This document shows positions 13,806-61,463 of a stretch of 64,000 nt of DNA, in pieces. Positions within the stretch are counted from its first letter, which is position 1. Each line of letters starts with the position of its first letter. The notes beneath the pieces were generated by a model, which was not told where the DNA came from, made no database searches, and worked only from the letters and a program-made list of their open reading frames with translations. The position numbers and the translations under genes were made by a program. The DNA comes from an uncultured Acidimicrobiales bacterium (lineage in GTDB: Bacteria > Actinomycetota > Acidimicrobiia > Acidimicrobiales > SZUA-35), in NCBI GenBank assembly GCA_937922805.1, contig CALAJV010000008.1, positions 15,475 through 79,474 on the forward strand, written 5' to 3'.

Positions 13806-16112
13806 TTAGGTAGCGGGAGCGCTTAGTTGTCTTTCGTCTTCGTCGCCGTAGAGCGGTTCGTTGTCTAGAGCTTCCAACCGGGCGTCGATCTCGTCCAACT
13901 CAAGGGCCATGGTTCGCAGATTTTCCATGGTTGGCAGTGGTTGCGGTGTGTCTTGGTCGGAGTCGGTTTCGATTGCCGCACCGCCGACCGGGGTGATGCC
14001 ATCACCGCTACCTTCGGCCTCATCACCGACGTCAGCCCCATCGCCGTTGCCGGCTTGGCTGTCGGTGTGATCGCTGGCGTCGTCGTTGTCCGAATCGGAC
14101 TCGGCGGCGTCGTCAACTGACATGGACGCAGCCGTCGATTGGTCGGCGGAGTCAGGTGTGGTTGGTTGACTGTCGCTTGGCCGCGAATCCGGAGAGGATG
14201 AGAATCGGTGGAGTGCTCCAGCAGTGAACAAGCCGGGCCCGGTTTTTGCTTGGGCCTCCTGGGCAACATCTTCGTCTTCGTCTGTGTCTGCGTGTTCTTG
14301 GTCTTGTTCGGAGCCTTGATCAGCTTGGGCCGGTTGTTCGAAGCCCTGCTTTCCAAGCTGAGCTACTTCTAAGGTGTCGTCGGCTTCGTCGTTGGCTGGT
14401 TGTTCGTCGCCTGTTGCCGGCTCGTCGTCGGTTCCGTGCTCGATGGCTGGTTGTTCGTCGCCTGTTGTCGGCTCGTCGTCGGTTCCGTGCTCGTTGGCTG
14501 GCTGTTCGTCGTCGGTTCCGTGCTCGTTGCCAGCATTGGCTTCGGAGTCATCGGCAGGGTCTTCGGGTTCATCTGTTGGTTGCTCATATCCGACGTACCC
14601 TGCGTCGGCTAGGTCGACCACGCCGAGATCAACCCACGGTGTCTCGTCTTCTGATTCGTCGTCGCCCAGGTAGCCAACGATGCCGACGTCGACGCCGTGA
14701 TCCTCTGACTCCTCTGACTGTTGGAATTGTTCTGCGTCGCCGAGCTGGCTGTTGTTGGTGGAATTCGCCGAGTCATCGCTGGTCGAGCGTTCCTCATCAG
14801 TTCCGTCACCGTTGTTGGTGTTTGCAGCTTCGAATTCGCGTTCAGCATTGTCCACGTCGGCTACATCAGCGTGATCAGGATCTACATCATCCTCATCGAC
14901 AACTGCAACCCGATCGTCTTCGCCGCTCATAGCTTCAAACTCGCTATCGATATCGTCTTCGGTGCCGGCTCCGACTTGATCGCCATGGCCGCTCATAGTC
15001 TCAAATTCTCCGTCAACATCGTCTTGATCGGTGACGTCCAACTCGTCAACGGCCGCGGCAACATCATCGTTCTCATCAACGCCAGCTTCAATGGTTTCGC
15101 CTCTGTCGGCTACGCCTCGACCGACCTCATCGTCTCTGTCGGCTACGTCTGCGGTGGCTTCATCGTCTGCGTCTTCATCAGCGGTTCGGTCTGCATCAAC
15201 GGTGGCTTCATCGCCTGCGTCTGTCGTGGCTTCATCGTCAGCGTCTTCATCAGCGGTACCGTCTGTATCAACGGTGGTTTCATCGGCTACGTCTTCATCA
15301 GCTGTGTTCTTATCGGTGCTGGCTTGTGCGGTGATGCTCTGTTCAGTTGTGTCGGCTTCGTTCGGGTTCTCAGATTCGAGGGCGTCGCCTTGGGAAGCGT
15401 CAACCGGCAACTCGATCTGATCTTCACTTGCTTCAGCTTGGTCGAAACTACCTGTGTCCTGGTTCGGTGAGCCGCCTTCATTTTCCGGGGCAGCTGCGCC
15501 GTCGACGGAAACGATTTCGTCGTCGCTTTCGTGAAGATCAGAGTCTGTGCTGGTTATGTGGTCGGCGTTGAACTGAGGGTTCGGTGTGGTGGCGTGAGGT
15601 TGGACGACATGGCTCTGTTGAGCAACTTGTTCGTCGTCTGTTGGTTCGGCATCGGCGAGCCATTGCTCGGCATCGACGGTGGGAGCGTGGGCTCGCTCGG
15701 GTGTCGGCTCTGGATTTCCATCGTTGGGGACTTGGGCCATGACGGGCTCGGTTTCCTGACTTATTGTTTCGTAGGTTACTTCATCCGATGCTGAATTTTC
15801 AGCATCTTCGCCGCCATGATTTGTTTCTTGACTTAGCTGGTGATTCGGCTGTTCGTCCGACGTGCTCTGTGGTTGAACTGCTCGTTCGTGGTCAGCGGGA
15901 AGAACGTTTTCTTCTTCTGCCAGTTCGCCTGCGTCCAAGTTTTGGCTTGCTGCTGATGTCGCTGCTTCAAGCTTTTGCGCTCGCCGGCGAGCCAAGATGC
16001 CATTCTTGCCCCACGGCGAGAGGGATTGCACTGCTCGAATCATCCGTTGAACCCAGTTGAGCTTTGGGGTCGGGGTTGAAAAATTCAGATCATTGCTATC
16101 CATCAGTGCCAC
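13806..16112 (-). CDS. Extremely acidic, low-complexity repeat protein (768 aa) with short basic N-terminus and helical C-terminal tail
   Basis: A long uninterrupted ORF with coherent D/E/T/A/Q-rich composition. It contains in-frame tandem repeats, for example the 17-aa unit 'EHGTDDEP(T/A)TGDEQPA' encoded by a 51-bp DNA repeat at about 14394-14530. It lies 18 bp downstream of the lipoprotein gene on the same strand. No recognisable domain. Confidence 0.6.
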   Translation of the reverse strand: MALMDSNDLNFSTPTPKLNWVQRMIRAVQSLSPWGKNGILARRRAQKLEAATSAASQNLDAGELAEEENVLPADHERAVQPQSTSDEQPNHQLSQETNHGGEDAENSASDEVTYETISQETEPVMAQVPNDGNPEPTPERAHAPTVDAEQWLADAEPTDDEQVAQQSHVVQPHATTPNPQFNADHITSTDSDLHESDDEIVSVDGAAAPENEGGSPNQDTGSFDQAEASEDQIELPVDASQGDALESENPNEADTTEQSITAQASTDKNTADEDVADETTVDTDGTADEDADDEATTDAGDEATVDADRTADEDADDEATADVADRDDEVGRGVADRGETIEAGVDENDDVAAAVDELDVTDQDDVDGEFETMSGHGDQVGAGTEDDIDSEFEAMSGEDDRVAVVDEDDVDPDHADVADVDNAEREFEAANTNNGDGTDEERSTSDDSANSTNNSQLGDAEQFQQSEESEDHGVDVGIVGYLGDDESEDETPWVDLGVVDLADAGYVGYEQPTDEPEDPADDSEANAGNEHGTDDEQPANEHGTDDEPTTGDEQPAIEHGTDDEPATGDEQPANDEADDTLEVAQLGKQGFEQPAQADQGSEQDQEHADTDEDEDVAQEAQAKTGPGLFTAGALHRFSSSPDSRPSDSQPTTPDSADQSTAASMSVDDAAESDSDNDDASDHTDSQAGNGDGADVGDEAEGSGDGITPVGGAAIETDSDQDTPQPLPTMENLRTMALELDEIDARLEALDNEPLYGDEDERQLSAPAT

Positions 16113-18997: not shown

Positions 18998-19996
18998 TCA
19001 TTCGCATGCAACTCCGTCACCATCGCGATCAAGTCCGTAAATATCTGCCCCTACAACACGAACAGGACCTCGGACGTAGGCAGGTCCATTCCCTGACCCA
19101 CCGGCACAATCAACGTCGCTCGCAACGGGAACGCAGCCCGAGTAGTTCGGATCACAGCCGTTTGCCGTTGTTGGTGCTGCGGTAGTTGGCGGTTTGGTGG
19201 TTGGTGCAGCGGTAGTGGGTGCTGCCGTAGTGGTTGGTTCTGCGGTGGTTGGTGGTTTGGTGGCGGTAGTTGTCGCTAGTGTTGTGGTACTTGCTTTGGT
19301 GGATGAGGGGCTTGTGCGAGTTGAAGTCGTAGATGAAGCCCTCGTTGTTGTCGATGTCTCATCTGGTTGATCAAAGAAGGTCTCAATCTTTTGTTCATTA
19401 TCTTGCGGTTCGTTGGGTTGGTTAGCAACGGCCAAGAGTGCGAGGCCGCCGATTACGCCAAGACCAACGAGGTTTGCCTTGCGTCGACGCGACCTCGGGC
19501 GTCCTTTAGGTCCACTTGATTCCGACCCAATGCGAATCGATCCTGGCCTGACAAGGTCGGCTGATCTCGGCGGAGGTGGCTGCGAATAAGCCGATATTGG
19601 TGCACGGTTCTCCGCTGCCAGCTCTTGTTCGAACAGCGCTATGCGTTGCGCTTGATATTGGGCTCCCAGCTGGGCGGCGTACCGATCACAGTACATTTTG
19701 GCGGCTAGCACCGTCTTTTCGCCAACACCTGGAATTGCGGTAAGCGTTGCAACGCTTGATCTTTTAAGAGTCCATAGGTTGGTTACTCCTGCCCTCTTAA
19801 GTGCCGACAGGCGCAGGCCGTGGCCACTAAAAACATCGATAGAAGTCGTCGAGAGTGCATTTTGGACATCGTCTTGAGCGAGACGCAGAGCCTTGCGGCG
19901 CCTTGCTTGTTTTTTGGATTGAGCTCTAGCTTTTTCGAACATCGCTTCCGACGCCTTTATGTAATTACTCAAAGACACAATTGTACCAGGCGCCAA
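18998..19996 (-). CDS. Membrane protein with cytoplasmic helix-hairpin-helix region, Thr/Pro linker and extracellular Excalibur calcium-binding domain
   Basis: HhH-like 'LTAIPGVGEKTVLAAK'. Single TM helix 'LVGLGVIGGLALLAVA'. T/P/A-rich linker. C-terminal 'CDPNYSGCVP...DCAGGSGNGPAYV...YGLDRDGDGVACE' carries the Excalibur DxDxDGxxCE motif. Confidence 0.7.
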   Translation of the reverse strand: MAPGTIVSLSNYIKASEAMFEKARAQSKKQARRRKALRLAQDDVQNALSTTSIDVFSGHGLRLSALKRAGVTNLWTLKRSSVATLTAIPGVGEKTVLAAKMYCDRYAAQLGAQYQAQRIALFEQELAAENRAPISAYSQPPPPRSADLVRPGSIRIGSESSGPKGRPRSRRRKANLVGLGVIGGLALLAVANQPNEPQDNEQKIETFFDQPDETSTTTRASSTTSTRTSPSSTKASTTTLATTTATKPPTTAEPTTTAAPTTAAPTTKPPTTAAPTTANGCDPNYSGCVPVASDVDCAGGSGNGPAYVRGPVRVVGADIYGLDRDGDGVACE

Positions 19997-44560: not shown

Positions 44561-47272
44561 GTGGTGGCAGACCGGCCGAACAGTAGCGTGCCAATCATGT
44601 GGCGAATTGGGTTGGAACGACTAGTAGCGGTTGCCGTACTTGTGGCTGCCAGTGTGGCAGCCGGAGCGACGCCAGCGGCCGCTCAGGGTATACCTACTAT
44701 TACGGTCAACTGGCATGGGGATGGATCCGACGCCAACATCTCCGACGGCCAATGCGCCACAGCCGATGGCTACTGTTCGCTTCGAGCCGCGATCGAAAAC
44801 GCCAACGCGTTGTCGGGAGCGAACCGGATCGAGTTCGACCTTCAAGGGTCGACGCCGCAAACGATCAAACCGGCGAGCCCTCTTCCTCCGCTTTATGATG
44901 CCGACACAATAATCGACGGCTACACCCAACCCGGTTCGAGGGCCAACACCGACGAGGGCAAATCCAACGCTGTCATCAAAGTTGCTATCGAAGCCACGAA
45001 CCAAACCTGGGGTCTACGGATCGAATCATCTGGAAACACCATTCAAGGCCTCTCGGTTTATGGAGCACGAACCAACATAGAACTCTTCAGCGACGGCGCC
45101 GATGGCAACGTGATCGCTGGAAACTTCATTGGCACTAACCCGGCTGGCACCTACACCAAAGTCAATGTGGTAAACCTCGATTCCGGCATCGAACTTACTC
45201 ATGGCCCAAGCCAAAACCGAATCGGCCTACCCACCCTTGCTGGCCGCAACGTGGTAGCGGGATACGGGGCTCAAGGCATTCGTGTCAATGGAGGGCCATC
45301 AAATCAGAACCGCATCCAAAACAACATCATTGGCTTCAACCCCTCACTCACCGGCTCGCTCGGCGGATGGGTCGGTATTGATGTGCAATGGGGAGCGTGG
45401 GGCAACCTCGTTGGTGGCCTAGGTCAATATGAACGAAATGTCGTAGGGAACCAGACCTATCGGGCCGGTATCGATCTGTCTCACGGCGCGCTGAACAATG
45501 CCGTGGTTGGCAACTACGTCGGCGTTCTCGCCGATGGGTCAACCACCACCGATTACAGCGCCAACAAGGACGGCATTGTTCTCAAAGACGGACCGTTCAA
45601 CAACTACATCGGGCACAACGTCGTCGGCAACAGCAACAATCACGGCATCCGTTCCTATACCCGCTACAACGGGCCCAACATTTTTGATAGCAACCTTGTC
45701 GGAGTAGGAGTAGATGGTTCCAACATTGGCAACACCAACGTCGGCATTTTCCAAAATGGCTACGATCAACTCCTCTACAATAACGTCGTCGCATACAACG
45801 GAGCGGCAGGCATCGTTTCATCAAACGTAAACCAAGGCCAGCAGCATCATTTCACCCCTGACACAACTGAACGCTCGCAGATTCGTCAAAACACCTACTA
45901 CCAAAACGGCGGGTTGAACCTCGATCTGGAACCTATTGGCGTAAACATCAACGACAACGGTGATGGCGACGACGGGCCCAACGGTCTCCTCAATACGCCA
46001 GAGATAACGGGGATGGGGCCAGGCAAAGTATTCGGGACTACGTGTTCTGGATGTGCTGTCGAGATCTATATGAGCGGCCTGGCTGACGCCAACAGCAGCG
46101 GTTTATCACCTTCGGTAGGTCCCGCTCCGGGAGTCGGCGCTGCTTGGGTCGGAACTGCAACTGCTGGACCGGATGGCACATTTTCACTAGCCTCCGAATC
46201 TATTTCCACCGGATACACACTGTCGCTACTAACAGTCGACTCGGAAGGAAATACTTCGGAGCTAACACCACCGGTCGTCGTCGGCTCATCTCATGCTGGC
46301 ACAAACGGGGCCGCTAACGCTTCAGCGGGCGGAATTGCACCGCCAGCGGCACCAGCGCCGCCGCCACTTTGGGTAAGTGAAGAAGCGGTTATCACCGGCA
46401 CAGTAACCGACGCCGACGGAAACCCTGCTACTGGCGCCCAAGCTGAGCTGTTCACCCAGAACAACGATGGGAGCAGAGGCGATTGGGTCGCTTCGGCCTC
46501 TGTCCTATCCGGTAGCGGAACGTACCGGATAGAAGCACCAGCAGGATGCTGGGTGGTCACATTCGTCGCGCCGAGCGGTCAAACCTTTGCCGGCTCTGGA
46601 ACCCCGTGGCTCAGCAAACCGATCTGTACTACCGCCGGCGAGTCGGTCACTAACTTCAATGCCACCTTGGCAAGCGACGTAGACGACGACGGCGCAATCA
46701 CTGGAACGGTTACGAAAGCTAGTGCCGCTGTCAACGGCGTCCTGGTTGACTTGTTTGAGGCTGCGGCCGATGGAAGTCGTGGCCAGTGGGTCGCTAGCGC
46801 CACTACTAATGCCAACGGAAAATACAACCTACCGACCACCGACGGCTGTTGGATCCTGACGTTCGTCGCAGCCGAAGGTGAGACCTTTACTGAATCTCCC
46901 AGTCGGTACCTCAATCGAGCGGTTTGTACCGGTTCGGGCGAAACCGTTTCAGGAATCGACGCCGCGCTGGTTGACGCCACCCAAGCGGCAACTATCAACG
47001 GAATAGTAACCGACAGTGGAAACGGCGTCGGTGGGGTACAAGTCGACTTGTTTACCGCAGCGGAGAACGGGAGCCGAGCGAACTGGGTCTCAACGAGTGC
47101 TACGTCTGGAGATGGGTCGTTTGTCCTGGCAGCCAACGAAGGGTGTTGGGTGCTTACCTACGTGGCCCCTGCCGACAATACGTTCGCTGCGTCTGGTAGC
47201 CGATGGCTCAATGTTCCGGTCTGCACCACCGAAGGTCAAACCGCTACGGTGGATGCCGTCGTCCTCAGCTAG
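44561..47272 (+). CDS. Secreted right-handed parallel beta-helix repeat protein with three C-terminal CarboxypepD_reg-like domains
   Basis: Signal peptide (likely start at the ATG at 44597). 'GQCATADGYCSLRAAIENANA' is the beta-helix cap motif. Many 'N.I.GN.IG' turns. Three ~100-aa repeats of the form 'ITGTVTDADGNPATGAQAELF...GCWVVTFVAPSG'. Confidence 0.75.
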   Translation: MVADRPNSSVPIMWRIGLERLVAVAVLVAASVAAGATPAAAQGIPTITVNWHGDGSDANISDGQCATADGYCSLRAAIENANALSGANRIEFDLQGSTPQTIKPASPLPPLYDADTIIDGYTQPGSRANTDEGKSNAVIKVAIEATNQTWGLRIESSGNTIQGLSVYGARTNIELFSDGADGNVIAGNFIGTNPAGTYTKVNVVNLDSGIELTHGPSQNRIGLPTLAGRNVVAGYGAQGIRVNGGPSNQNRIQNNIIGFNPSLTGSLGGWVGIDVQWGAWGNLVGGLGQYERNVVGNQTYRAGIDLSHGALNNAVVGNYVGVLADGSTTTDYSANKDGIVLKDGPFNNYIGHNVVGNSNNHGIRSYTRYNGPNIFDSNLVGVGVDGSNIGNTNVGIFQNGYDQLLYNNVVAYNGAAGIVSSNVNQGQQHHFTPDTTERSQIRQNTYYQNGGLNLDLEPIGVNINDNGDGDDGPNGLLNTPEITGMGPGKVFGTTCSGCAVEIYMSGLADANSSGLSPSVGPAPGVGAAWVGTATAGPDGTFSLASESISTGYTLSLLTVDSEGNTSELTPPVVVGSSHAGTNGAANASAGGIAPPAAPAPPPLWVSEEAVITGTVTDADGNPATGAQAELFTQNNDGSRGDWVASASVLSGSGTYRIEAPAGCWVVTFVAPSGQTFAGSGTPWLSKPICTTAGESVTNFNATLASDVDDDGAITGTVTKASAAVNGVLVDLFEAAADGSRGQWVASATTNANGKYNLPTTDGCWILTFVAAEGETFTESPSRYLNRAVCTGSGETVSGIDAALVDATQAATINGIVTDSGNGVGGVQVDLFTAAENGSRANWVSTSATSGDGSFVLAANEGCWVLTYVAPADNTFAASGSRWLNVPVCTTEGQTATVDAVVLS

Positions 47273-47382: not shown

Positions 47383-48597
47383 ATGAGTATGTTCAAGCGC
47401 CTTGTTCCGTTACTTATCGTTGCTTTGGTAGTCGCTTCATGCGGCAACGAGGCCAAAATAGAAGCAGGCGCACCGGGTGAGGCATCACTCGTCGTTCCCG
47501 GAAGCGGCGATTCGGACGGCGACGATTCGGGCGGAAATTCAGAACCATTGCTCGTCGATGATGAGGAACGTTCGGACAGCGACGACGAGTACGTCGAACG
47601 CGACACTGACAACACTGACAACCCTGTCGACAAAAGCGACCTCGACAACGGTGACCTCGACGCTGATGAGGACTACGACACTGGCCACGACAACGGTGAT
47701 GGCAGCAATAACAAAGCTAAAGACAGCGACAGCCACGATGCCCCTAGTCCAGGTGAGGCAGATCCGGCACAGGTAATTTCGTCCCAGAACGACCTGAACG
47801 ACCCGAAACCAATTGTAGTTAGCAACCTCATTTCGAACGGCGACTCAACCGTCACCGCTTACTTCTCCGGAGCATCACAGCCATGCGCAGGTGCTAAGGC
47901 CACCGTCATCGAAGACGGCGATGTTGTTGAGATTCTCGTTGAGATGGGCTCAACCCCGGAAGCCGCCTATACCTCATGCGTTGCCGTAGTGGTTGACTAT
48001 CGAATGGACATACAGCTAGAAGCCCCTCTAGCGGGGCGAGCACTTGAGATCCACCCGGATAACAAAGGCAATGCCGAAGAAGGTGCGATAGTTGTCGTTT
48101 CTCGAAATGATCTAGCCAACCTCCGGTCGGCGACCATCGAGGACCTAACTGTTGCCGACAACGGGACGACAGTGAAAGTCTGGTTTACCGGTGGGCTAAA
48201 GAAGTGCTACGGAGCGAAGGCAACGATGACGGAAACCAGCACTAAGGTCGAAGTTCATCTGGAGATTGGCAATCCCCCCGGTGCCGCCGATTGCGATGAC
48301 GTCGGCGTTCAATCGGTCATAAACATCGCTCTGGCAGCTCCGCTTGGTGAGCGTCTACTGGTCGCCCATCCGGATAGCAGCGCCAATACCCAACCAGAAT
48401 CGCCAGCCGAGCGGGCGGCCCAAGAATATATCGGACTACAGGTTGACGAAGCCGAGAAGCGGGCGAAAGAAAGCGGATTCGCTTTCCGAGTTGTGTGGAT
48501 TGACGGCGAAGCCTTACCGGTGACCGAAGACTACAGCGAAAGCCGAATTAACGTCGCGGTGGAAAAAGGGACCGTTGTAGAGTCATCCATCGGCTAG
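47383..48597 (+). CDS. Lipoprotein with acidic linker, two repeated domains and C-terminal I78-like (peptidase inhibitor) module
   Basis: 'LLIVALVVASCGNEAK' lipobox. Asp-rich segment. Internal duplication ('TV(T/K)(A/V)(Y/W)F(S/T)G...C.GAKAT..E......E(I/V).(V/L)E(M/I)G..P'). The C-terminal 'YIGLQVDEAEKRAKESGFAFRVVWIDGEALPVTEDYSESRINVAVEKGTVVESSIG' resembles inhibitor I78. Confidence 0.55.
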   Translation: MSMFKRLVPLLIVALVVASCGNEAKIEAGAPGEASLVVPGSGDSDGDDSGGNSEPLLVDDEERSDSDDEYVERDTDNTDNPVDKSDLDNGDLDADEDYDTGHDNGDGSNNKAKDSDSHDAPSPGEADPAQVISSQNDLNDPKPIVVSNLISNGDSTVTAYFSGASQPCAGAKATVIEDGDVVEILVEMGSTPEAAYTSCVAVVVDYRMDIQLEAPLAGRALEIHPDNKGNAEEGAIVVVSRNDLANLRSATIEDLTVADNGTTVKVWFTGGLKKCYGAKATMTETSTKVEVHLEIGNPPGAADCDDVGVQSVINIALAAPLGERLLVAHPDSSANTQPESPAERAAQEYIGLQVDEAEKRAKESGFAFRVVWIDGEALPVTEDYSESRINVAVEKGTVVESSIG

Positions 48598-48650: not shown

Positions 48651-51600
48651 TCAACGTCGAACGATGCCAGCAAACTGCTCAAAGGCAACAACGATGCAGG
48701 TTCTGCCGTTCTTCCAGCCCCAACCATCGCCATCAGAGTCAGCCTCTGGGAGACATACCGGGAACGCAGTCAGTTCATTGTTCACGACTACGACGGCGGT
48801 TCCAAGTTCGAGTGGAGATAACCGGCCACCGCTAAAGCAAAGCAGTCCACGATTCGGATCAACAATACAAACCGGATCCGATTCTTCTGCTCTATCGTCA
48901 TCGCCGCCAAGATCAGGGAGTTCAGGTAATTCAGAGAGGTCGAGCGGTGGACCGGTGATGACTATCTCTGGTAGCGGCACCCGCTCCGCCGATTGCATCA
49001 TCTCGGGATCAGCGTCAACCCCGAAGCGCTCCACCTCATGGATCTCGACCTCAGACAACGCCACCTCATGCCCAACCTCGAAGCGCTCCACCTCATGGAT
49101 CTCAACCTCAGGCAACGCCACCTCAACTTCGAAGCGCTCCACCTCGGCACCCGCAACCTCAGACAACGCCGACGTTTCGGTTGTAGGGGCAGCTGGCAAT
49201 TCAACTTCTGAAATCGATGAGTCGCGGTCGACTGGAGTTGTTTCGCTGGGAACTGTCTCGTCGACTAGGTCCAAGATGGGCTCAACAGCGGTCGGCGCCG
49301 GGTCTCCGGCCATCTCAGGCTGGGTTTGTTCTGCCGGCGACACTGACTCAACCTGGTCGGGCTTGCCCTGCCCATCTGGGCTGCCGGCATCAGTAGTGCC
49401 GGGCGCTCCAACGGTGGCTTCAGCGTCATCGACTCCTTCTCTATGAACCGCATACATTGCTTCGAGGGCCGGGAGCACGGTTGTCGCATCGGCAAAATCT
49501 CGACTCAGTTTGGCAACCGACAACATGTATGACTGATCTTCGACAGTCGATTCATTCTCAGTCCCGTATGCGGCTATCGATTGCAGGAGCGCATTGTCGG
49601 GTCGATCACGAAGCGCAATCTGAGCGAGGTCCACCGCCTCTTGATTCGATACGGTCATCGTAAAGTCGGCCGTTGAGAAGATGTTCGACGTCAGTCGATC
49701 CAAACCAGCTGCTTGCTCCAAAGACGGATCTACAGCACCAACTCCCCGGTGCTCACGAACTGATACCGCCTCATACTTGTTGAGGTTCAGCGCCTGCTCA
49801 GCCGTATAAACCTTGCTGGTAATAGCATCGTCAGGTCTCGTCGATCTCCCAGCCGACCCTCCGGGCGATACCCATTCCGTCACAGTCAAACTGGTGTTGT
49901 AGTTACGGTCGTGCCAAAGCTGAATTTCAACCGTGTCCTTGCGAGACAACGTAGGGCCACTAGTGCCGCCGGTTGACGGATTTACGCCAGTCAACTGCCC
50001 ATTGTGGTGCACCTGCGCATCGAGCGACTTGACGATGATGTCTACTCTGCCTTCAACTGTTGACCCAGTCCCGCCGGGTCGAACCGTAGCAGCGCCGGTG
50101 TCGATCTGGTTTTGGATGTCGGCAACTCTGGTCGCATCGTAGTTGAAGTAGTCGCCGCCGATGTCGGCTAGGAACCGTTCACCGCTGACCTTGACCGCAC
50201 CACCGACAGCCCCTTTCAGTGTGTTGGCCCACGTGTTGGGCAAGATCGCTGGTGGGCTCTTCGGCGGGGCTCCCTGCGACACAGGGCTGGGTCGAACGAT
50301 CGGCATACTTTCGGGGGGCTCAGGCTCGGCCGGCGGAACATAAAGCCGACCCTTTGTTTCGTCGATCACGTCGAGCTCTCGAGCTGTTGTCGGAGTGCCG
50401 TCGGCCTTGAAGTAACCGCTGACGAACCCGTTCACGTCGCGCTCAATGTAGCCCCGAGTCCCCACATCCTCTCGACTAACGCCTGATCGTTTGCCGCCGT
50501 CGAGCAAGCTGGCCATGGAGTGACCAGCTTGCGGGCCAGCGAATTCGGCTAGCGTCAGTGGCGGAGAGTCTGTTTCGGCCTTGGCTGCCTGAGTCTGCCG
50601 GTTCCCAGCGGGCGGCGAAGCGGTCGTGCCGTATCCCCAGTTCCCTTGGATTCCGCCGGTTATCTCGATCGTTTCGGCGTTGCTGATGATGCCGTTCCCG
50701 ACGGTGAAGTTTCCGACCGGCACCTCCACGTTACTAATCGGCAATACTGCGACTTCCTCGCCGCGGGCAATAAAGGTGTAGGGAGACTCTTGGGATCCGT
50801 AGGGGATGTAATCCACGGTGGCACCAGCCCCCACACTAAGTTTGCCATCTACGCCGAGTTCGCTGGAACCGTAGAGAGAACCCCCAAGGACCGCCGATTC
50901 GACCCCGCCAATAAATGTCGTGCCGTTGGCCGGTAAGTCGAGAGCGTCTTCTGGTCGAGGCACTTCTCCATTGGGCCCAACAGCGTCGACCGGTACGACC
51001 GTTCGCTGAAAGTCGAGAGATGTTCCCGGCACCCAAACTCCAGCCGAGACTTCGGTCCCTACCAGCCCGACGTTGGCCCCGATCCGGTCGCCGACAAAGT
51101 CGACCGACTGTTGAGCTACGAGGTTCTGCACCCCAGGTCGGCTGGAAGTGCGATCAATGTACTGTTCGAATCTCAAGGCGTCGACACCAATGCCGGCCTT
51201 GCCAAGTAAATCGATAGCTTTTCGACCCACTGATTTGGGGGCTTTGGCGTTAACCGACGTGATGGGTTCGTACGTAGTCACCAACGTTGGGTGATCAACG
51301 TCCCCCTCATCGAAACCGTCGGCAATTGATTCAGCCTTGGTTTCATGCATGGACTCCGGGAGCGCCATTCTTCGATCCATGAAACTTCCGGCCGGCTTTG
51401 ACAGCTCAGCAGCTACCGCAGCGACCTCATCGGGATCGTGACCGTCACCTGCGAACCGTCCCGTCGCCAGCGATTGAGCAACTTCGTTGGCCAGCCAGCG
51501 GTCCGGGTCGCTGTCAATTAGATCTCGTGCGCGTTGCGCCACCCGCTCGGACACGTTGGCGTATACATACGACTCATCTGCTTCGTCTTCAGATCGCGGC

Positions 51601-53792
51601 CCAACAATCGTAATCATCTGCGTTTCTGGATGTCCGGGGAACGGCTCGCTAGTGATCATCGGCCCTTCGGTATCGAAGCGTGAGCGATCAACCCGCTCAC
51701 CCGAGCCGCCAAACTGAGTTCCGAGGGCGACTACCGCCTGCCACGGCGGGATCTCCGAATTCTGAATACTTGCTGGATCTCCGAATCCATCCGACTGATC
51801 AGCGACCACATCCCCAGTTTGCGCTATCTCAGCCTCATCAGCCGGGGTGTTACCACTGTCGAAATTGTCGTAGCCTTGAACGTCCGATGGATCTATCACG
51901 GGTGCTGGAAGCTGTGGCCCAGTCGGGTCATCGCCAAAATCGAGTTCAGACTCCTCATCGACATCGTTAGGTACTGTTCCAAGGTCGACAATGTTGGGTG
52001 AACCATCGTCGTTAAAAAAATCGGCGTACCCGGTTTCCGGATCCTCAACTACCCACAACGAATTCCACCGTCTCGCGCCGGCCGGAACCCCAGGTGGAGG
52101 CTCCTCCGGCTGTTGTTCCACCACCGACCCAGAATCGTCAATCTGGTTCAAACCATCGACCTGAGCGTCCGCTTCACCAGTCTGAGTTTCGGTCAAACCC
52201 GATGTCAGCTCCGGTGTTGGAGCAGGAACGTCTTGTTGGAGCCACTCTGTATCTATGCTTGGCTCCGCCTCACTTTCGGAGCCACTTTGCATTGATCCAA
52301 GCCGGACAATGTTGGGTGAACCATCGTCGTTAAAAAAATCGGCGTACCCGGTTTCCGGATCCTCAACTACCCACAACGAATTCCACCGTCTCGCACCGGC
52401 CGGAACCCCAGGTGGAGGCCGCTCCGACTGTTCCACCGGCGCCAATCCAGAGTCATCGAACTGAGCGGGAACTTCAACAAAGGTGGTATCTTCCCCTGTT
52501 GTAGGTTGAGCGCTATCAGATAAAGATCCGTTCGTTTGGGTCGGTTCGATCGCTTCATCGCTGTCGCTATTCTCGGGCTGTAGCGCAGCGACCAGGGCGC
52601 TGTCGATGGTCCTAATTGGCGGCTCAGCTTGTTGGTTAGCGAGCTCGGCAACCTCCGGCCTGACCGATTCGGCTGCAAGCGAACTTGCAACGTCGTTTTC
52701 AGCAGCATCAACGTCTGGGTTGCCGCCAGTCAGTACCGCCGAATCAAAATCTACTGGAACGTCGCTACTCACTACGCTTTCGGTTTGCGAATCTGACTGT
52801 TCGATTTTGGCCGCTTCTGATTCCGGCAATGGTGTGAGAACAGCCGCCAGATCTTCGACGCCCTGATCTACCGAACTTTCAATTGCTAGCTGATCCGAAT
52901 CATCACTAGCGTCCTCGATCGTTGTTTCTCCGGTTATCGCATCAACCACCGTGCGGTCATCGGCTGGCCCATATGCGACAGCCTCAGCTCGAGAATTCTC
53001 AGGTTCAGAACGTTCACCCGCTTGACTGGGTCTGGCCACCGTGGCCATCTCAATGTCGGCGGCCCGAGCCGCTTGTTCGGTTGAGTAAGAGTCTCCAAAA
53101 GCATCGAAATATTCGGGCGACTCTTGAACGTCGACATCAGGGTCGACCGACGACGGCTCGAAGCTACCGCTAACGGTTTGATTGGCCACCGGCTCGCGCC
53201 CACTACCGACTACTTGCCCAGCTCCGAGCCCGTTGCCAGCCCCCGTCGTCGGAACGTCCTCATCATCAGGGTCAGAGTCGAACGGGCTGCCCCAATCCAT
53301 CATCGTCGCGTTGTTGAACGACGATACTGGCGAGGAAAACGAACTCGAACTTGTATCAGTATCAGTAGCCGACTCGCCACTCTTGTCGTTTTCGCTACCA
53401 GCCTCTACCGTGTCGGTGCTGGTATCACTGTCGGCGCTGGCACTGGTGTTAGTGCTGGTGTCGGTGTTGGTCGTAGCGGTGCCCAAACCATCGTTGCCGT
53501 AGTCAGTTGGGCTCGAGCTTCGTGCCTCATCGGCGCCGCCGCCAAGGCTCTCATCAGTGTCTTCGGTGCGCTCTTCGTCCGGCTCAGCTCTCGCACCGTC
53601 ATCACCATCACTAGTACCGCGATTCCCATCGTCGGGAATGGCCGACGTCGGGGAGGTAACACCCAACAAACCAGCGCTGGTCAAGGCGGCCGAGGCCAAA
53701 CCGAGCTTGAGTCCGCGTTTAACCCGCCCGCTCTTTGGGCGTGCCCGAAAAGCGTCTGGACACGCCAAATTTTTGGAGCACTTACCGCACAT
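48651..53792 (-). CDS. Giant secreted protein (1713 aa), acidic N-terminal region, internal repeats, C-terminal Cys-flanked DGDGWGW module
   Basis: A single uninterrupted ORF. Leader 'RVKRGLKLGLASAALTSAGLLGVTSPTSA|IPDDGNRG'. A duplicated 38-aa block 'PPGVPAGARRWNSLWVVEDPETGYADFFNDDGSPNIV'. 'EVERFEV/EVEIHEV' repeats near the C-terminus. Terminal 'CLPEADSDGDGWGWKNGRTC'. No catalytic domain was recognised. Confidence 0.7.
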   Translation of the reverse strand: MCGKCSKNLACPDAFRARPKSGRVKRGLKLGLASAALTSAGLLGVTSPTSAIPDDGNRGTSDGDDGARAEPDEERTEDTDESLGGGADEARSSSPTDYGNDGLGTATTNTDTSTNTSASADSDTSTDTVEAGSENDKSGESATDTDTSSSSFSSPVSSFNNATMMDWGSPFDSDPDDEDVPTTGAGNGLGAGQVVGSGREPVANQTVSGSFEPSSVDPDVDVQESPEYFDAFGDSYSTEQAARAADIEMATVARPSQAGERSEPENSRAEAVAYGPADDRTVVDAITGETTIEDASDDSDQLAIESSVDQGVEDLAAVLTPLPESEAAKIEQSDSQTESVVSSDVPVDFDSAVLTGGNPDVDAAENDVASSLAAESVRPEVAELANQQAEPPIRTIDSALVAALQPENSDSDEAIEPTQTNGSLSDSAQPTTGEDTTFVEVPAQFDDSGLAPVEQSERPPPGVPAGARRWNSLWVVEDPETGYADFFNDDGSPNIVRLGSMQSGSESEAEPSIDTEWLQQDVPAPTPELTSGLTETQTGEADAQVDGLNQIDDSGSVVEQQPEEPPPGVPAGARRWNSLWVVEDPETGYADFFNDDGSPNIVDLGTVPNDVDEESELDFGDDPTGPQLPAPVIDPSDVQGYDNFDSGNTPADEAEIAQTGDVVADQSDGFGDPASIQNSEIPPWQAVVALGTQFGGSGERVDRSRFDTEGPMITSEPFPGHPETQMITIVGPRSEDEADESYVYANVSERVAQRARDLIDSDPDRWLANEVAQSLATGRFAGDGHDPDEVAAVAAELSKPAGSFMDRRMALPESMHETKAESIADGFDEGDVDHPTLVTTYEPITSVNAKAPKSVGRKAIDLLGKAGIGVDALRFEQYIDRTSSRPGVQNLVAQQSVDFVGDRIGANVGLVGTEVSAGVWVPGTSLDFQRTVVPVDAVGPNGEVPRPEDALDLPANGTTFIGGVESAVLGGSLYGSSELGVDGKLSVGAGATVDYIPYGSQESPYTFIARGEEVAVLPISNVEVPVGNFTVGNGIISNAETIEITGGIQGNWGYGTTASPPAGNRQTQAAKAETDSPPLTLAEFAGPQAGHSMASLLDGGKRSGVSREDVGTRGYIERDVNGFVSGYFKADGTPTTARELDVIDETKGRLYVPPAEPEPPESMPIVRPSPVSQGAPPKSPPAILPNTWANTLKGAVGGAVKVSGERFLADIGGDYFNYDATRVADIQNQIDTGAATVRPGGTGSTVEGRVDIIVKSLDAQVHHNGQLTGVNPSTGGTSGPTLSRKDTVEIQLWHDRNYNTSLTVTEWVSPGGSAGRSTRPDDAITSKVYTAEQALNLNKYEAVSVREHRGVGAVDPSLEQAAGLDRLTSNIFSTADFTMTVSNQEAVDLAQIALRDRPDNALLQSIAAYGTENESTVEDQSYMLSVAKLSRDFADATTVLPALEAMYAVHREGVDDAEATVGAPGTTDAGSPDGQGKPDQVESVSPAEQTQPEMAGDPAPTAVEPILDLVDETVPSETTPVDRDSSISEVELPAAPTTETSALSEVAGAEVERFEVEVALPEVEIHEVERFEVGHEVALSEVEIHEVERFGVDADPEMMQSAERVPLPEIVITGPPLDLSELPELPDLGGDDDRAEESDPVCIVDPNRGLLCFSGGRLSPLELGTAVVVVNNELTAFPVCLPEADSDGDGWGWKNGRTCIVVAFEQFAGIVRR
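51987..52100. repeat. 114-bp direct repeat, copy 1 (inside the giant gene)
   Basis: Nearly identical to 52305-52418, with one mismatch seen (cgcgcc vs cgcacc). The offset is 318 bp (106 codons, in frame). Confidence 0.9.
52305..52418. repeat. 114-bp direct repeat, copy 2 (inside the giant gene)
   Basis: See copy 1. It encodes the second 'PPGVPAGARRWNSLWVVEDPETGYADFFNDDGSPNIV' block. Confidence 0.9.
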
Positions 53793-54086
53793 TGAAGACC
53801 CACCGTCATGTGTTTATGTAATTCCAAAGAGCAATTGTGACCAACCAGTAGCTAGTCGGAGGAAAGCTCCCCTCCTATAGTAGCGGTAATGTCGCCCATC
53901 CAGCGAACTAGCGACTGCAACCGCCTAAGCACCGCCATTTGACGACCGCCGCTATTGCTCCCATTATTTTTAGCTCAGTCGGCTTTACCACCGGTTGACT
54001 GACCGGCAGATCGGGCGATACGCTCGGTATAGACGGATCCGCTCGTAGGGTCAGTCTCACAAATCACAATTAGAGGTGGGTTCTTA

Positions 54087-54611
54087 ATGTGCAAAGACAA
54101 TTTTGACGCTCTCGTTAACGACGAGAGCCAACAAGACGGCGACACATCGACCGCCGACGGGGTGAAACGGCGCGGCCTAGCCATCGCGCTAGCATCGGCA
54201 ATGTTGCTTGGCTTACTGGCTCTCGTCGGCGCGGCCCAAGCCGCAGCCATCCCTGACGATGGCAATCGTGGCGACGGATACTGGAGCGCCGATGAAGAAT
54301 ACGTACCGCCGACCCTGACGCCTTGTACCGATCCTGACGGTGACGGCTGGGGCTGGAACGGGTTCGAGACGTGTGAGATGGACGGCCACGACCAAGTTGT
54401 TAGCGACGAAACCGACTACTACGACTATTGGGCGGGCGAAGGCCACCCTGACACCTACGCAGGAGAAATTAGAACGATCACCATCGTGTGTGTTGATACC
54501 GACGGCGACGGCTGGGGTTGGGCCGAGTACGAAGGCGAGGGCTACAGCTGCCAAGGCCCGTACCACTACATCTCGATGGAACCAAACCATGGCGGCTTCG
54601 GCCGGGGCTAG
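54087..54611 (+). CDS. Small secreted protein with two Cys-flanked DGDGWGW modules; leader paralogous to the giant protein
   Basis: 'VKRRGLAIALASAMLLGLLALVGAAQAA|AIPDDGNRG', then 'CTDPDGDGWGWNGFETC' and 'CVDTDGDGWGWAEYEGEGYSC'. It is transcribed divergently from 48651-53792. Both genes start ATGTGC behind similar GGTGGGT(C/T)(T)CTT(C/A)A sequences. Confidence 0.7.
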   Translation: MCKDNFDALVNDESQQDGDTSTADGVKRRGLAIALASAMLLGLLALVGAAQAAAIPDDGNRGDGYWSADEEYVPPTLTPCTDPDGDGWGWNGFETCEMDGHDQVVSDETDYYDYWAGEGHPDTYAGEIRTITIVCVDTDGDGWGWAEYEGEGYSCQGPYHYISMEPNHGGFGRG

Positions 54612-57840: not shown

Positions 57841-58311
57841 TTAGCTTCCCGCTAGGACCAGCCCGGACTCAAGAAATGCATCAAAGTTCTCCGAAAGGTT
57901 GACCACTGCTTCGTCTGGCTCGAAGCCCTGCATCACGAACACGACAGGTGGGTCGACCTTGACCGAACGAAAGTCGAAGGCTAGGTCCCCGTTTGGGCAC
58001 TCAATGAATGGCACCAGCAGCTCGGGAAAGTCGTTGTCTACCATGACGGAATACCGATACGGAACCGAATAGAAGAAATCGTCAGGCGATTCAACGCATC
58101 CGGGCTCGAACCCTAGAACAAATCCGGCCACGAACCGCATCTCTTGGATCGGCACCTCAGCGTTGTCGGCGATCATTCCCATGTGTTCAGCCAAAAATTC
58201 TACATACGTTTTGGGAAACTCGATTCCGCGAAGGTGCTGGTACTGCTCCAGTTCAGACCGGTCCAGCTCGGTGCTGAGCTTTCCGTACCGTTCCCACTCA
58301 ATTCCAATCAT
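57841..58311 (-). CDS. SMI1/KNR4 (SUKH-1) family immunity protein
   Basis: 'LEQYQHLRGIEFPKTYVEFLAEH' is a SUKH-type N-terminal motif. The ATG at 58311 overlaps the TGA of the upstream toxin gene (ATGA at 58308-58311). Confidence 0.65.
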   Translation of the reverse strand: MIGIEWERYGKLSTELDRSELEQYQHLRGIEFPKTYVEFLAEHMGMIADNAEVPIQEMRFVAGFVLGFEPGCVESPDDFFYSVPYRYSVMVDNDFPELLVPFIECPNGDLAFDFRSVKVDPPVVFVMQGFEPDEAVVNLSENFDAFLESGLVLAGS

Positions 58312-61300
58312 CCTGATCTGCCACCTCCCCAAATTCTCATACCGCCAGTGTGGTTAACCTGGTGTGGTCCCACTCTATCTACTAGCTGTAGCCGCCCAAG
58401 GTCTTGATGGTGGTGCCAGGTTAGGTCGGCCGGAGAGGTAGTCCGGAACGTTCCATCTGGTTTCGGCCAAATGTGAGCGAGTTGGGCATCGTCCAGCCCT
58501 ATGCGATTTACCAACGTCGGGTCTTCCAAAATCGCCTCATAAAGCTTCTGGTTCGCCGCAGCGAAGTGCGGTCCGTCCTTGCCACCGTGTAGAACGGCGT
58601 CGGAAACCACATCATCGATAGCGGTGTCGAAGTGGGAGTCGAGTTCGATGAAGCCATTCTCATCGAAGCGGGCTGTTTTGTAGCGTCCGTTCTCGACATT
58701 TCGTGAGTTGATTAGGTTGACCCATTCCCCTCCCCCATTAGCGTTCGGCACCCAGACCTCGCGACCGACACCGTCGGGTCGGGGCCGCGTCAGCGGCTTT
58801 CTTGTAGGGTCATCGATCAGCCGGAGATCAGCATCAGTGGCCGTGATGCCTCTGGTGCCGACCGTTGGAGGAGGCAGGTCAAGCTCGTCGAGAATGGTCA
58901 CGACCTCAGCCGCGCTTCTGCCGTCAGACAATAGCTCTCTCGCTATTTTGTCTTCGTTCACGGCCAAGATGGCGGCATAACGATCCATGAACTCCCGTGA
59001 GCTCAGCTGATCGGCTTCACCGGCTAACGCCCGAAGATCAGCGTTGGTAGATCGACGGGCTATCTCAACCAGCTCATCGGTCGTGTTTTTCAACGTAATC
59101 TGCGACGACGCATCACCGAGATTGACAATCCGTTGCCCTCTTCGAATCAGTCGAGCAGCGGTGAAGATGTCGCCCAAGCCACCGGTAGCAGCAATAGCTA
59201 CGTTGAGCGGATCGTCAGCCTCAATGAAGGCATAGACCTCTAGGGCTGCCAGTCCGATCAAGCCCGCTTTCACCCACAGCGGGGCCGCTGCACCACCGGA
59301 GTACACAACGGTGGCGGTAACCGCGGCGGCCAACCCAATCCATCCGATTAGTTCACCGAACTCTTCCCACCCAAAGGTGTCTTCTCCTAGCCCAAACTGG
59401 CGGCCGGTTTCAACCAGGTCGATAATGGTCGGAGGTACATTTGGGTTGCCCTTATTGGCATCCAGCCACGCTTCGATTTGATCTTCGTGGAGGTTTGCCG
59501 GGCGGTTACCATCGTCATCAGGTGGATTGATCTCGTCGTAGAGAGGCCCGAGTCGAGCAGTCAGAATCATCTGAACAACAAGGGCTTGGGTGTCTTCCCG
59601 AGTGATATGGAAGTCGCTAGCTCCGGCCGATTGATACTCTCCACCCGGACCCATGAACGTGTCGTTGCCCGCCGCTCCCGGCAAAAGCTCGAAGATTATT
59701 GCGTTCTCAGGCTTGGTGAGCTCGATAGCCAGCTCTTGTAAACCTTCGGGTATGTCATGGAAAACCGAGGCCTCTCCAGCAGCGATTTGGCGCAACGCTT
59801 CTTCATGGCCGAGCGCCCAGCCGTTGCCAAAGTTATGAAGCCAAGCGGCGTACTCGCCGTAGGATGAGACAAGGCCAATCTGATCGTCATCCAGCGGAAG
59901 ATCGACCTGCGGAGAACCTTCAAGGAATCGAGCCTCTTGCACTGTTTGCAGAACTGAGAGCTCAACCGCCAACGACTGTTTGACCTCATCAGGTACATCG
60001 AGATTTTCAACTTGATCGGGTGAGACCGGGTTGCCGAGGGCATCGGTGTCGTAGACCAAGCGCAACCGGCGAACTCTGTCGTTGGTTGAGTCCTCGTCGA
60101 CAGCCGATATCGCTATTCGACCAGCGTCAGCAGCAGGAACACCGCCGATCATCGCTTGGTTGACAAACTCCGTGGCGTCTTCGTCGTGATCTACAAGTTC
60201 GGAAACTCGAACTCGACGCTCGAGCCAGAGTTCGTTGAACTCAGCGTCTGTTAGCTGATCCGGATTGGCGAGTTGAGCGTCGATCTCATCGATTCGGACG
60301 GCGGCTGCATATTGGTCATCGTCGAGTCCGTAGTTAGGAGCGGCTAACGCGGTTGCCAATGTCGACCGCAGGTTTTGGGGTGGCAGATCGTCGAAACCTG
60401 AGACACCTCCAACCCAACGGGAATCATCGGACTCGGCAACAAGGTCGGGGTAGGTATCGAGAACGTAGTTTGTAAGCTGCTGGCCACCAGCCGAAATGGT
60501 GCCGTCGCTTTCAATGGTCGAACCAAGTAGCTGATCCAGAAGCTGCTGCCTCCGGTAAGGCTGGTTGGCGTGTGAATATCCATCGTGGCTTGGGCCGACC
60601 GTTTGATTGCTGAGAATAAATCCTGACTCATCGAGATCAAGGGCATCGACTAGCAGATTCAGCGCCGGCTGACCGTCAACTCTGGCCGAGGTCAAATCAT
60701 CAACTAGAGCGCCTTGCTCGCTCTCGGGTAAGAGAAGTAGACCTTGGGTAACAAGCATGGTGGCCGCCTGCTCGTTTAGGTAGTTGCCTTCAGCATCTGG
60801 ATCTAGATCGGCCTGAGTGTGGATACCCATCTCGATCATTACTTCAGCGATGAGAGCCCGACGGTCGGGGTCTTCTTCGCCTGCGGCATTGGCATACTCG
60901 TAGATCGCTATACCCAAAGTTTGATGGGGTTCGTACCGGTCATTCCCCTCCATGGCTCCATCGATGATGTCTTCTAGTTCAGCCTCGATCTCAGCTTTCG
61001 CTGCTTCGTTCTCGATTTCTTCTAATCGATCTTTGTCTTCATCAAGCGGGATGTCTTCATCTGATAACGAGAAACCGGCATGAGTCAACGCTCGGTTAAC
61101 AGCAGCGTAGGGCGCGGTGTAGACCCCGTTCACGCCGGTTCCGTCGAGCAGCGCATCATGGATCTTCTCGACGAACCCGTTGTTGTATTTCGCTTCCGCG
61201 ATCAGCTCGGCAAAAGGGTCGTTGCTCCCCGAGTAGTTTGACTTGGCGGCCAAAGGCGTGACTCCGGAATCGCCAAGGACCGACCCGGTTGACGTCCGTT

Positions 61301-61463
61301 GGCTGACAACCCCATCGAACGTTCCTTCCAACCCGGCCACATAGCCGGTTCCTTGGGTGAAAAAAACAGCAAGATCTTCCGTTTTGGCCTGGACCTGATG
61401 GCCAAAGGCGTTTAATCCGTCTCTCTCATCAGCGCCCATCGTGAACCTCAACCAGGCAAACAC
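58308..61463 (-). CDS. Polymorphic toxin with C-terminal WHH-type HNH/EndoVII nuclease domain
   Basis: C-terminus 'RFDENGFIELDSHF...GPHFAAANQKL...DLTWHHHQDLGRLQLVDRVGPHQVNHTGGMRIWGG' matches the Tox-WHH pattern. About 900 aa lie upstream with no signal peptide. A hydrophobic block ('IGWIGLAAAVTATVVYSGGAAAPLWVKAGLIGLAALEVYAFI') precedes the toxin tip. The start is the GTG at 61463 or the ATG at 61439. Confidence 0.7.
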   Translation of the reverse strand: MFAWLRFTMGADERDGLNAFGHQVQAKTEDLAVFFTQGTGYVAGLEGTFDGVVSQRTSTGSVLGDSGVTPLAAKSNYSGSNDPFAELIAEAKYNNGFVEKIHDALLDGTGVNGVYTAPYAAVNRALTHAGFSLSDEDIPLDEDKDRLEEIENEAAKAEIEAELEDIIDGAMEGNDRYEPHQTLGIAIYEYANAAGEEDPDRRALIAEVMIEMGIHTQADLDPDAEGNYLNEQAATMLVTQGLLLLPESEQGALVDDLTSARVDGQPALNLLVDALDLDESGFILSNQTVGPSHDGYSHANQPYRRQQLLDQLLGSTIESDGTISAGGQQLTNYVLDTYPDLVAESDDSRWVGGVSGFDDLPPQNLRSTLATALAAPNYGLDDDQYAAAVRIDEIDAQLANPDQLTDAEFNELWLERRVRVSELVDHDEDATEFVNQAMIGGVPAADAGRIAISAVDEDSTNDRVRRLRLVYDTDALGNPVSPDQVENLDVPDEVKQSLAVELSVLQTVQEARFLEGSPQVDLPLDDDQIGLVSSYGEYAAWLHNFGNGWALGHEEALRQIAAGEASVFHDIPEGLQELAIELTKPENAIIFELLPGAAGNDTFMGPGGEYQSAGASDFHITREDTQALVVQMILTARLGPLYDEINPPDDDGNRPANLHEDQIEAWLDANKGNPNVPPTIIDLVETGRQFGLGEDTFGWEEFGELIGWIGLAAAVTATVVYSGGAAAPLWVKAGLIGLAALEVYAFIEADDPLNVAIAATGGLGDIFTAARLIRRGQRIVNLGDASSQITLKNTTDELVEIARRSTNADLRALAGEADQLSSREFMDRYAAILAVNEDKIARELLSDGRSAAEVVTILDELDLPPPTVGTRGITATDADLRLIDDPTRKPLTRPRPDGVGREVWVPNANGGGEWVNLINSRNVENGRYKTARFDENGFIELDSHFDTAIDDVVSDAVLHGGKDGPHFAAANQKLYEAILEDPTLVNRIGLDDAQLAHIWPKPDGTFRTTSPADLTWHHHQDLGRLQLVDRVGPHQVNHTGGMRIWGGGRSG

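Follow-up and report, generated by a model that had tools for sequence, protein, structure and literature searches.

A shared 5' cassette and CBM10-type modules in two divergent, putatively exported proteins of an uncultured Acidimicrobiales bacterium

Why should two neighbouring genes, one encoding a giant protein and the other a small one, begin with the same peptide behind similar signal sequences and carry the same DGDGWGW motif? This question is raised by a divergent gene pair of an uncultured Acidimicrobiales bacterium, which we analyzed within a stretch of 64 kb of contig CALAJV010000008.1 (hereafter the window). The answer that we prefer, and that we advance with slightly more doubt than belief, is that both would be exported proteins built from two portable pieces: a 5' cassette that ends in an address or docking tag (the octapeptide IPDDGNRG) and modules of the CBM10 type. 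The giant protein would then act as a tether or adhesin.

The two genes are separated by 294 bp (Table 1). Both start with ATGTGC, with GGTGGGT and five more bases upstream, in the contexts ggtgggtcttcaATGTGC and ggtgggttcttaATGTGC. An independent repeat search recovered the elements that run from the Shine-Dalgarno sequence to the second codon as an 18-nt inverted pair with 83% complementarity. Both open reading frames (ORFs) appear to be real genes, since their codon positions show GC1>GC2, as in the neighbouring lon gene, and since the giant gene differs from a 99.5%-identical strain variant by 10 synonymous and 10 non-synonymous codon differences, i.e., a crude dN/dS of around 0.3. The giant's ATG at 53792 and its long n-region are real as well, because the codon for the V of VKRG is GTT and not one of the start codons. 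An alternative GTG start, with which the small protein would have a canonical MKRR leader, was considered and rejected: the ATG has a strong GAGGTGG Shine-Dalgarno sequence, and the homologous position of the giant gene is this GTT. The part of the giant's n-region that would be removed with the leader starts with MCGKCSKNLAC (residues 1-11, 53763-53792) and thus holds three Cys, including a CxxC, whereas the small protein retains only the MC.

The likeness extends through the leaders, which are 50% identical over 38 residues (pairwise E of 1.9e-6), to the peptide AIPDDGNRG, which is identical in both proteins. The first-pass annotation of the window had described similar ribosome-binding contexts, similar long signal sequences and an identical post-signal peptide, and all three descriptions hold. 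The DNA encoding the tag, itself found as a 26-nt inverted pair (53617-53642 and 54246-54271, 85%), is identical at 22 of 26 positions; the four differences are all synonymous and none is non-synonymous. Because the inverted DNA pairs sit at matching positions and the leaders are so similar, the 5' ends of the two genes have a common ancestry, and one gene probably received its copy of a homologous cassette from the other. The cassette would consist of the Shine-Dalgarno sequence, the MC start, a long signal peptide and the first eight mature residues, and would have diverged everywhere except in the octapeptide.

Within the window, the tag is confined to these two proteins. A six-frame translation of all 64 kb contains it twice only, and about 11 other proteins that we judged by eye to have signal-peptide-like or lipoprotein-like N-termini do not carry it, so that the peptide is not a generic feature of the secreted proteins encoded there. 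A relaxed regular expression gave no further true instance in the window or in any of the fetched loci. Its sole extra match, VPNDGN at 15714-15731, lies inside a cytoplasmic-looking acidic protein, and the partial resemblance of PPDDDGNRP, in a neighbouring toxin, was judged to be due to chance. Cleavage is predicted between Ala and Ile. The mature proteins would consequently start with Ile, and there is no Cys at +1, as in a lipobox, or elsewhere close to the cleavage site.

To look for the tag in other bacteria, we used GCNATHCCNGAYGAYGGNAAYMGNGG, the back-translation of AIPDDGN(R/S)G, as the pattern for scans of genome representatives of 185,579 species, metagenome contigs, and viral contigs. 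The pattern was matched 7 times in the genome representatives, 11 times in the metagenome contigs, and 0 times in the viral contigs. In 8 of these 18 matches, which belong to five gene families, the tag is in frame and directly follows a classical signal peptide ending in Ala (Table 1). The other 10 are out of frame or inside unrelated proteins, which is approximately what is expected by chance. The codons of the tag vary freely among the instances, whose genomes range from 34 to 65% GC, and the tagged proteins have nothing in common beyond the leader and the tag, which is followed by low-complexity linkers. Where a twin-arginine motif would lie, the small protein has KRRGLAI, the marine contig L014 has RPRRVGA, and the giant has only KRGLKL; the instances from low-GC contigs and from the Candidate Phyla Radiation (CPR) have none. 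Searches of PDB sequences with two tagged proteins from other bacteria gave no match. Two of the tagged proteins from low-GC contigs (L020, 1155-2600 on the minus strand, and L019, 1152-2471 on the plus strand) contain tandem repeats, NDSGSQGTHEQKDRDLDPQGGQH, whose copy number varies between alleles. They also have a conserved C-terminal domain with HTHP...PPSAAD, which is JAB/MPN metallopeptidase-like by reading of the motif and has no match in Pfam.

Since proteins that are otherwise unrelated and come from distant phyla carry the octapeptide after their signal peptides, and with different codons, there is strong evidence for sequence-specific selection on the peptide that would become the mature N-terminus. 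Selection on the peptide rather than recent duplication had been proposed from the synonymous differences between the two genes, and the recurrence in other phyla agrees with it. Pfam and NCBIfam have no model for the tag, and a search of the literature for 'IPDDGN' and 'DGDGWGW' found no paper. The tag is a real and apparently undescribed N-terminal motif that crosses phyla.

These observations bear on two other accounts of the tag. In the first, the likeness of the two genes would be no more than a relic of gene conversion between the neighbours, or of a partial duplication, and the tag would be functionless. The inverted pairs at the ribosome-binding site and start codon and at the tag do show a common ancestry of the 5' ends. 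Yet gene conversion would homogenise synonymous sites and flanks, while the flanks are 50% diverged and the differences within the tag are all synonymous; moreover, in other phyla, genes unrelated to these have the same peptide at the equivalent position. This account is largely refuted, and we give it very little credence. In the second, the octapeptide would be a local device for export or stability, in which an acidic early-mature region is combined with an aminopeptidase-resistant X-Pro N-terminus, and perhaps with a small Ca2+- or Asx-turn cap. Acidic early-mature regions help export and X-Pro N-termini resist trimming, and the tag always comes directly after the cleavage site, with Ile-Pro followed by two Asp. 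For such a role, composition would suffice, and eight residues that are invariant across phyla despite free codon change would not be needed; other secreted proteins of the window also do without the tag. Hence, we regard this explanation as somewhat unlikely.

The second piece is the module around DGDGWGW. This heptapeptide has only three sites in the six-frame translation of the window (48714-48734, 54336-54356, and 54501-54521), and the loops of the three modules, DSDGDG, DPDGDG, and DTDGDG, all fit the pattern DxDxDG. We used residues 514-1713 of the giant protein as the query of an exhaustive phmmer search of 1.84 billion representatives and obtained 122 non-self matches, with E values down to 9e-19, all of which align only to residues ~1663-1710. 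The matched proteins have 2-9 copies of the module each and are mostly secreted polysaccharide-active enzymes, with GH12, GH5, PL14, GDSL and SASA esterases, astacin, CotH, and GGDEF among the partner domains. The consensus of their arrays is (F)P-x-C-x5-D-x-DGDG-[WYF]-G-[WF]-EN-x3-C-x-V, and 119 of the 122 (10/10 and 109/112) carry PF02013 (CBM_10). When the module profile was compared with PDB sequences, the best match was the CBM10 of Cellvibrio xylanase A (1E8R/1QLD, E of 6e-4) over GWGWE..SCI. This segment aligns to residues 21-34 of 1E8R, with GWGW lying between the disulfide-forming Cys pair. The DxDGDG loops of calmodulin came next, with weak matches (E of 0.008-0.05).

Since PF02013 is present in nearly all matched proteins and a CBM10 ranks first among the PDB matches, the module is CBM10-like. 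Judging by these sequence relationships, it is a CBM10-type hairpin in shortened form, into which an EF-hand-like loop is built, and as such a variant of a known family. It is not a complete CBM10 of ~36-45 residues: the matches start around profile position 6-9, which holds for the window protein as well as for the arrays related to it. A hidden Markov model (HMM) built from 342 modules matches the giant's copy over its full length with 44 bits, the copies of the small protein only in their core (Table 1), and nothing else in the window. What the small-protein modules have in common with the family is the DxDGDGWGW core, the spacing of the Cys being altered. In other words, the Cys-flanked modules that the first-pass annotation saw in both proteins are confirmed for the giant, whereas the two of the small protein are degenerate. 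The same annotation had placed the DxDxDG loop among calcium-binding motifs. The literal loop and the weak calmodulin matches stand, and the loop probably binds Ca2+, but the module is not an unknown calcium-binding module and belongs with CBM_10. The models PF05901, PF18884, and EF-hand have no match in either window protein at E<=1; one member of the module family, P0009, falls just under the threshold of Excalibur (20.2 vs 22 bits).

By analogy with CBM10, the window modules may bind cellulose, chitin, or a protein. The Pfam family is described as a 'cellulose or protein binding domain' and includes the protein-binding dockerins of fungi, and in 1E8R the GWGW Trp residues bind cellulose. 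An alternative, in line with the first-pass annotation, is that the small protein binds the giant, either by its tag to the CBM10-like module or by its modules acting as dockerins, and serves as an anchor, cap, or competitor. The two are divergent neighbours with both features in common, all four strain-level contigs preserve their arrangement, and dockerins are part of CBM_10. The two full-length tagged proteins examined from other bacteria, however, have no CBM10-like module, and the proteins with CBM10 arrays found elsewhere do not have the tag. Docking of tag to module is weakened because the two occur independently in other proteins. Both window proteins are also orphans. Overall, we find such binding improbable.

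Between its ends, the giant protein is unlike anything in the databases searched, as the first-pass annotation had indicated from the sequence. It is very acidic (net charge of about -203), and its Cys are found only in the n-region (three) and at the C-terminus (four). The leader and tag are followed by ~400 residues of acidic, Ser/Thr-rich low complexity, by two near-identical repeats of 38 residues, and by ~800 more ordinary residues; then come an acidic EVE-type repeat, which has a 10-residue insertion in one strain variant, a Cys pair, and the CBM10-like module. At the DNA level, the two 38-residue copies are ~94% identical, as if duplicated recently within the gene. For residues 514-1660, the phmmer search described above gave no homologue at E<=0.001. 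For the whole protein, a word-indexed search of 5.8 billion proteins, Pfam, NCBIfam, PDB sequences, PHROGs, and PADLOC gave no homologue apart from a sub-threshold match to CBM_10. The small protein likewise has no match in NCBIfam, PHROGs, or PADLOC, and for both proteins the word-indexed searches returned only the query itself or a 99% variant. Near-identical contigs were found in four metagenome assemblies. The scan of the genome representatives with the tag pattern did not recover the locus. Hence, both proteins are lineage-restricted orphans with relatives only in near-identical strain contigs, the last ~45 residues of the giant excepted.

Table 1. Positions of the features of the gene pair in the window, and the tag in other bacteria (a slash marks the predicted cleavage site).
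Feature	Position	Strand	Details
Giant gene	48651..53792	-	ORF, 1713 aa
Small gene	54087..54611	+	ORF, 174 aa: leader, tag, two degenerate CBM10-like cores
Giant, Shine-Dalgarno to second codon, GGTGGGTCTTCAATGTGC	53787..53804	-	inverted pair with 54075-54092
Small gene, Shine-Dalgarno to second codon, GGTGGGTTCTTAATGTGC	54075..54092	+	inverted pair with 53787-53804
Giant leader, residues 1-51	53640..53792	-	MC start, 29-aa basic n-region, h-region, c-region ending TSA; cleavage predicted from AxA-type pattern
Small-protein leader, residues 1-54	54087..54248	+	MC start, acidic 24-aa n-region, KRRGLA, h-region, c-region ending AQAAA
Tag in giant, residues 51-59	53616..53642	-	A/IPDDGNRG
Tag in small protein, residues 54-62	54246..54272	+	A/IPDDGNRG
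Giant, 38-aa internal repeat, first copy, residues 459-496	52305..52418	-	
Giant, 38-aa internal repeat, second copy, residues 565-602	51987..52100	-	PPPGVPAGARRWNSLWVVEDPETGYADFFNDDGSPNIV
Giant, acidic EVERFEV/EVALPEVEIH repeat tract, residues 1550-1592	49017..49145	-	
Giant C-terminal CBM10-type module, residues 1677-1702	48687..48764	-	FPVCLPEADSDGDGWGWKNGRTCIVV; DxDxDG loop, GWGW aromatics, flanking Cys
Small-protein module 1	54324..54374	+	CTDPDGDGWGWNGFETC; partial module-HMM match, 21.5 bits, positions 11-28
Small-protein module 2	54489..54551	+	CVDTDGDGWGWAEYEGEGYSC; core-only module-HMM match, 17.4 bits, positions 11-20
Tag in L007, Candidatus Kaiserbacteria metagenome-assembled genome (MAG)			..FVPTAYA/IPDDGNRG
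Tag in L011, uncultured MAG			..VSEVQA/IPDDGNRG
Tag in L012/L019 and L015/L016/L020, contigs of 34-37% GC			..QIALA/IPDDGNRG and ..QTALA/IPDDGNSG
Tag in L014, 65%-GC marine contig			..APAGA/IPDDGNRG; long Arg-rich n-region

At two loci elsewhere, the surroundings of the tagged genes point to type IV secretion systems (T4SS). In the Kaiserbacteria MAG, on contig JABMNX010000035.1 of 47.9 kb, the tagged gene, which encodes 537 aa, is directly upstream of a TrbL/VirB6 gene (PF04610, 30.4 bits, cutoff 25.9) and has a TSP3-repeat protein on its other flank. In L020/L019, the tagged gene is directly downstream of a T4SS_pilin gene (PF18895, 26.9 bits, cutoff 26.6). The Pfam scores of the TSP3-repeat, TrbL/VirB6, and T4SS_pilin matches are all barely over the curated thresholds; weak NCBIfam matches, to mobilome membrane proteins and pilin-like conjugal proteins, agree with them. 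In L011, the 2.4 kb before the tagged gene hold no T4SS gene. For the window, Pfam gave no T4SS match from 13.8 to 64 kb or in ~10 kb of left flank, and phmmer searches with the TrbL and pilin of CPR matched nothing. As two loci show the association and the window pair does not, it is a lead and not a property of the window pair.

If the lead were general, the tag would be an accessory signal of T4SS of the monoderm, MPF_FATA-like kind, by which tagged adhesins or effectors, associated with the pilus or channel, dock N-terminally, and the window pair would serve a T4SS encoded elsewhere. According to a 2025 survey, the T4SS of Patescibacteria derive from the monoderm MPF_FATA class, which includes Actinobacteria, and the pilin arrays of their clusters are at times interrupted by non-pilin genes (PMC12102498). 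Both points fit tagged genes that adjoin TrbL/VirB6 and pilin genes, with the weak support of NCBIfam. On the other side, there are only two independent loci, T4SS genes are common in Patescibacteria, and neither the upstream region of L011 nor the window with its flank has any; we think this explanation unlikely. A similarly low probability attaches to the broader idea that IPDDGN(R/S)G, at the mature N-terminus, is a hitherto unrecognised signal for sorting or docking in bacteria that lack an outer membrane, found in Actinomycetota and Patescibacteria (CPR) and linked in the latter to the T4SS on which their epibiotic life depends. The known hosts of cultivated Saccharibacteria are actinobacteria. 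Tagged proteins of epibionts might thus be a case of mimicry, bearing the surface-address peptide of the host for placement on, or recognition by, its envelope.

In our preferred explanation, signal peptidase would cut between Ala and Ile and leave IPDDGNRG as the exposed N-terminus, followed by a flexible acidic linker. The octapeptide would then work as an extracytoplasmic address or docking tag, i.e., a short ligand for a component of the envelope, which would hold the protein back, position it, or pass it on. Each module would form a disulfide-clamped hairpin displaying the two Trp of GWGW, after a probable Ca2+-binding DxDxDG loop, and by analogy with CBM10 could fix the proteins either to cellulose, chitin, or a similarly insoluble polysaccharide, or to a further protein. 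The giant would be a long, highly acidic tether or adhesin, with the tag at one end and glycan binding at the other, and the small protein a minimal version with the same address and a similar ligand. The giant has an extracellular character, with Cys confined to the leader that would be cleaved off and to the C-terminal module, and with extreme acidity.

Several results weigh against this explanation. The cleavage site is only predicted, from an AxA-type pattern. The exact tag is rare, with only 2 true matches in the representative genomes, and a profile of 7 tag sequences run against 5.8 billion proteins gave 141 word-sharing candidates with 0 at E<=10, which is a strict cut-off for a motif of nine residues. 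If the tag served a general sorting system, it should be found more often, unless the usual form of the motif is more degenerate than our search pattern. The surroundings of the giant and small genes yielded no candidate for a receptor or a processing enzyme, and we know of no cognate enzyme for the tag. On the side of the modules, the match of Pfam CBM_10 to the giant (16.3 bits, E of 0.014, residues 1675-1701, profile positions 7-36) is below the gathering threshold of 23 bits, the small protein has no CBM_10 match in Pfam at E<=1, and the window modules lack the N-terminal third of a canonical CBM10, which holds the Cys/WYG segment. Finally, AlphaFold2 without alignment was uninformative, with a mean predicted local distance difference test (pLDDT) of 32.9 for giant residues 514-1713 and of 44.8 for the small protein.

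The remainder of the window provides the setting of the pair. It is chromosomal; besides lon and many secreted enzymes, it encodes RelA/SpoT, luciferase-like oxidoreductases, and a GT4 glycosyltransferase (MshA-like by reading of a motif), and the flank and parallel contigs encode RsiG and a Rex-like regulator. This gene content suggests Actinomycetota. Directly downstream of the 3' end of the giant gene, on the opposite strand, are two more genes for exported proteins. The first (44561-47272, +) encodes a protein of 903 residues with a weak CSLREA match at the N-terminus and three CarboxypepD_reg/DUF1416-like repeats. The second (47383-48597, +) encodes a very acidic, lipoprotein-like protein of 404 residues with an internal duplication and no family match. 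The order of these two genes, the giant, and the small gene is kept in L002, the one longer strain contig that spans them.

Further along, a protein of 1051 residues (58308-61463, -) resembles polymorphic toxins and ends in a Colicin-DNase/WHH nuclease domain; it is the one that contains PPDDDGNRP. The adjacent gene (57841-58332, -), which overlaps the stop of the toxin gene, is of the SUKH/SMI1-KNR4 immunity type. A 768-residue ORF (13806-16112, -) has a net charge of about -195, i.e., 25% of its residues, and no Pfam match, and the interval of 14-16 kb has a very strong AT skew (-0.39). Another DxDxDG-type motif of the window is found in a protein of 332 residues (18998-19996, -) with a weak helix-hairpin-helix match and a mucin-like low-complexity region; the last 12 positions of Excalibur match its C-terminus just under the threshold.

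Should the tag prove to be an address, it would represent a rare N-terminal equivalent of the C-terminal sorting tags, and would offer a handle on how proteins are placed on the surface or at the T4SS of monoderm bacteria, including the poorly understood Patescibacteria. The result on the modules clarifies more than it adds, since it files the DGDGWGW repeat under CBM10. It also indicates that a large sub-family of CBM10 has a built-in DxDxDG loop, which suggests Ca2+-dependent binding of polysaccharides. The body of the giant stands as an orphan with no recognised fold.

Among known systems, the closest to the modules is CBM10 itself (PF02013), with its type structure in xylanase A of Cellvibrio japonicus (1E8R/1QLD). 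They have in common the core P-x-C ... GWGW(E)N...SC-I/V with two Trp and flanking disulfide Cys, and the giant's module is, as in CBM10 proteins, a terminal appendage of a secreted protein. Unlike the type domain, it covers only profile positions ~7-36, without the first Cys and the WYG segment, the window modules have an inserted DxDxDG loop, and the protein to which the giant's module is attached has no recognisable enzyme domain. The loop is literally the D-x-D-G-D-G of EF-hand-like loops (calmodulin, Excalibur PF05901, and bacterial TSP3 PF18884), but it sits in a CBM10-type hairpin and not in a helix-loop-helix, and its Ca2+ binding is a prediction only. With accessory proteins of the MPF_FATA T4SS of Patescibacteria and monoderms, the likeness is that two tagged genes elsewhere adjoin VirB6/TrbL and VirB2-like pilin genes; the difference is that the window pair has no T4SS neighbour, and the survey cited above (PMC12102498) does not describe the motif. 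The last comparison is with the sorting tags that are read after Sec export, namely LPXTG with sortase, PEP-CTERM with exosortase, and GlyGly-CTERM with rhombosortase. IPDDGNRG differs from these in being N-terminal, in that it would be exposed by removal of the signal peptide, in having no transmembrane helix, and in being rare. Like them, it is short, invariant, and terminal, a flexible linker connects it to cargo proteins that are unrelated, and it recurs in distant taxa, where selection on the peptide maintains it.

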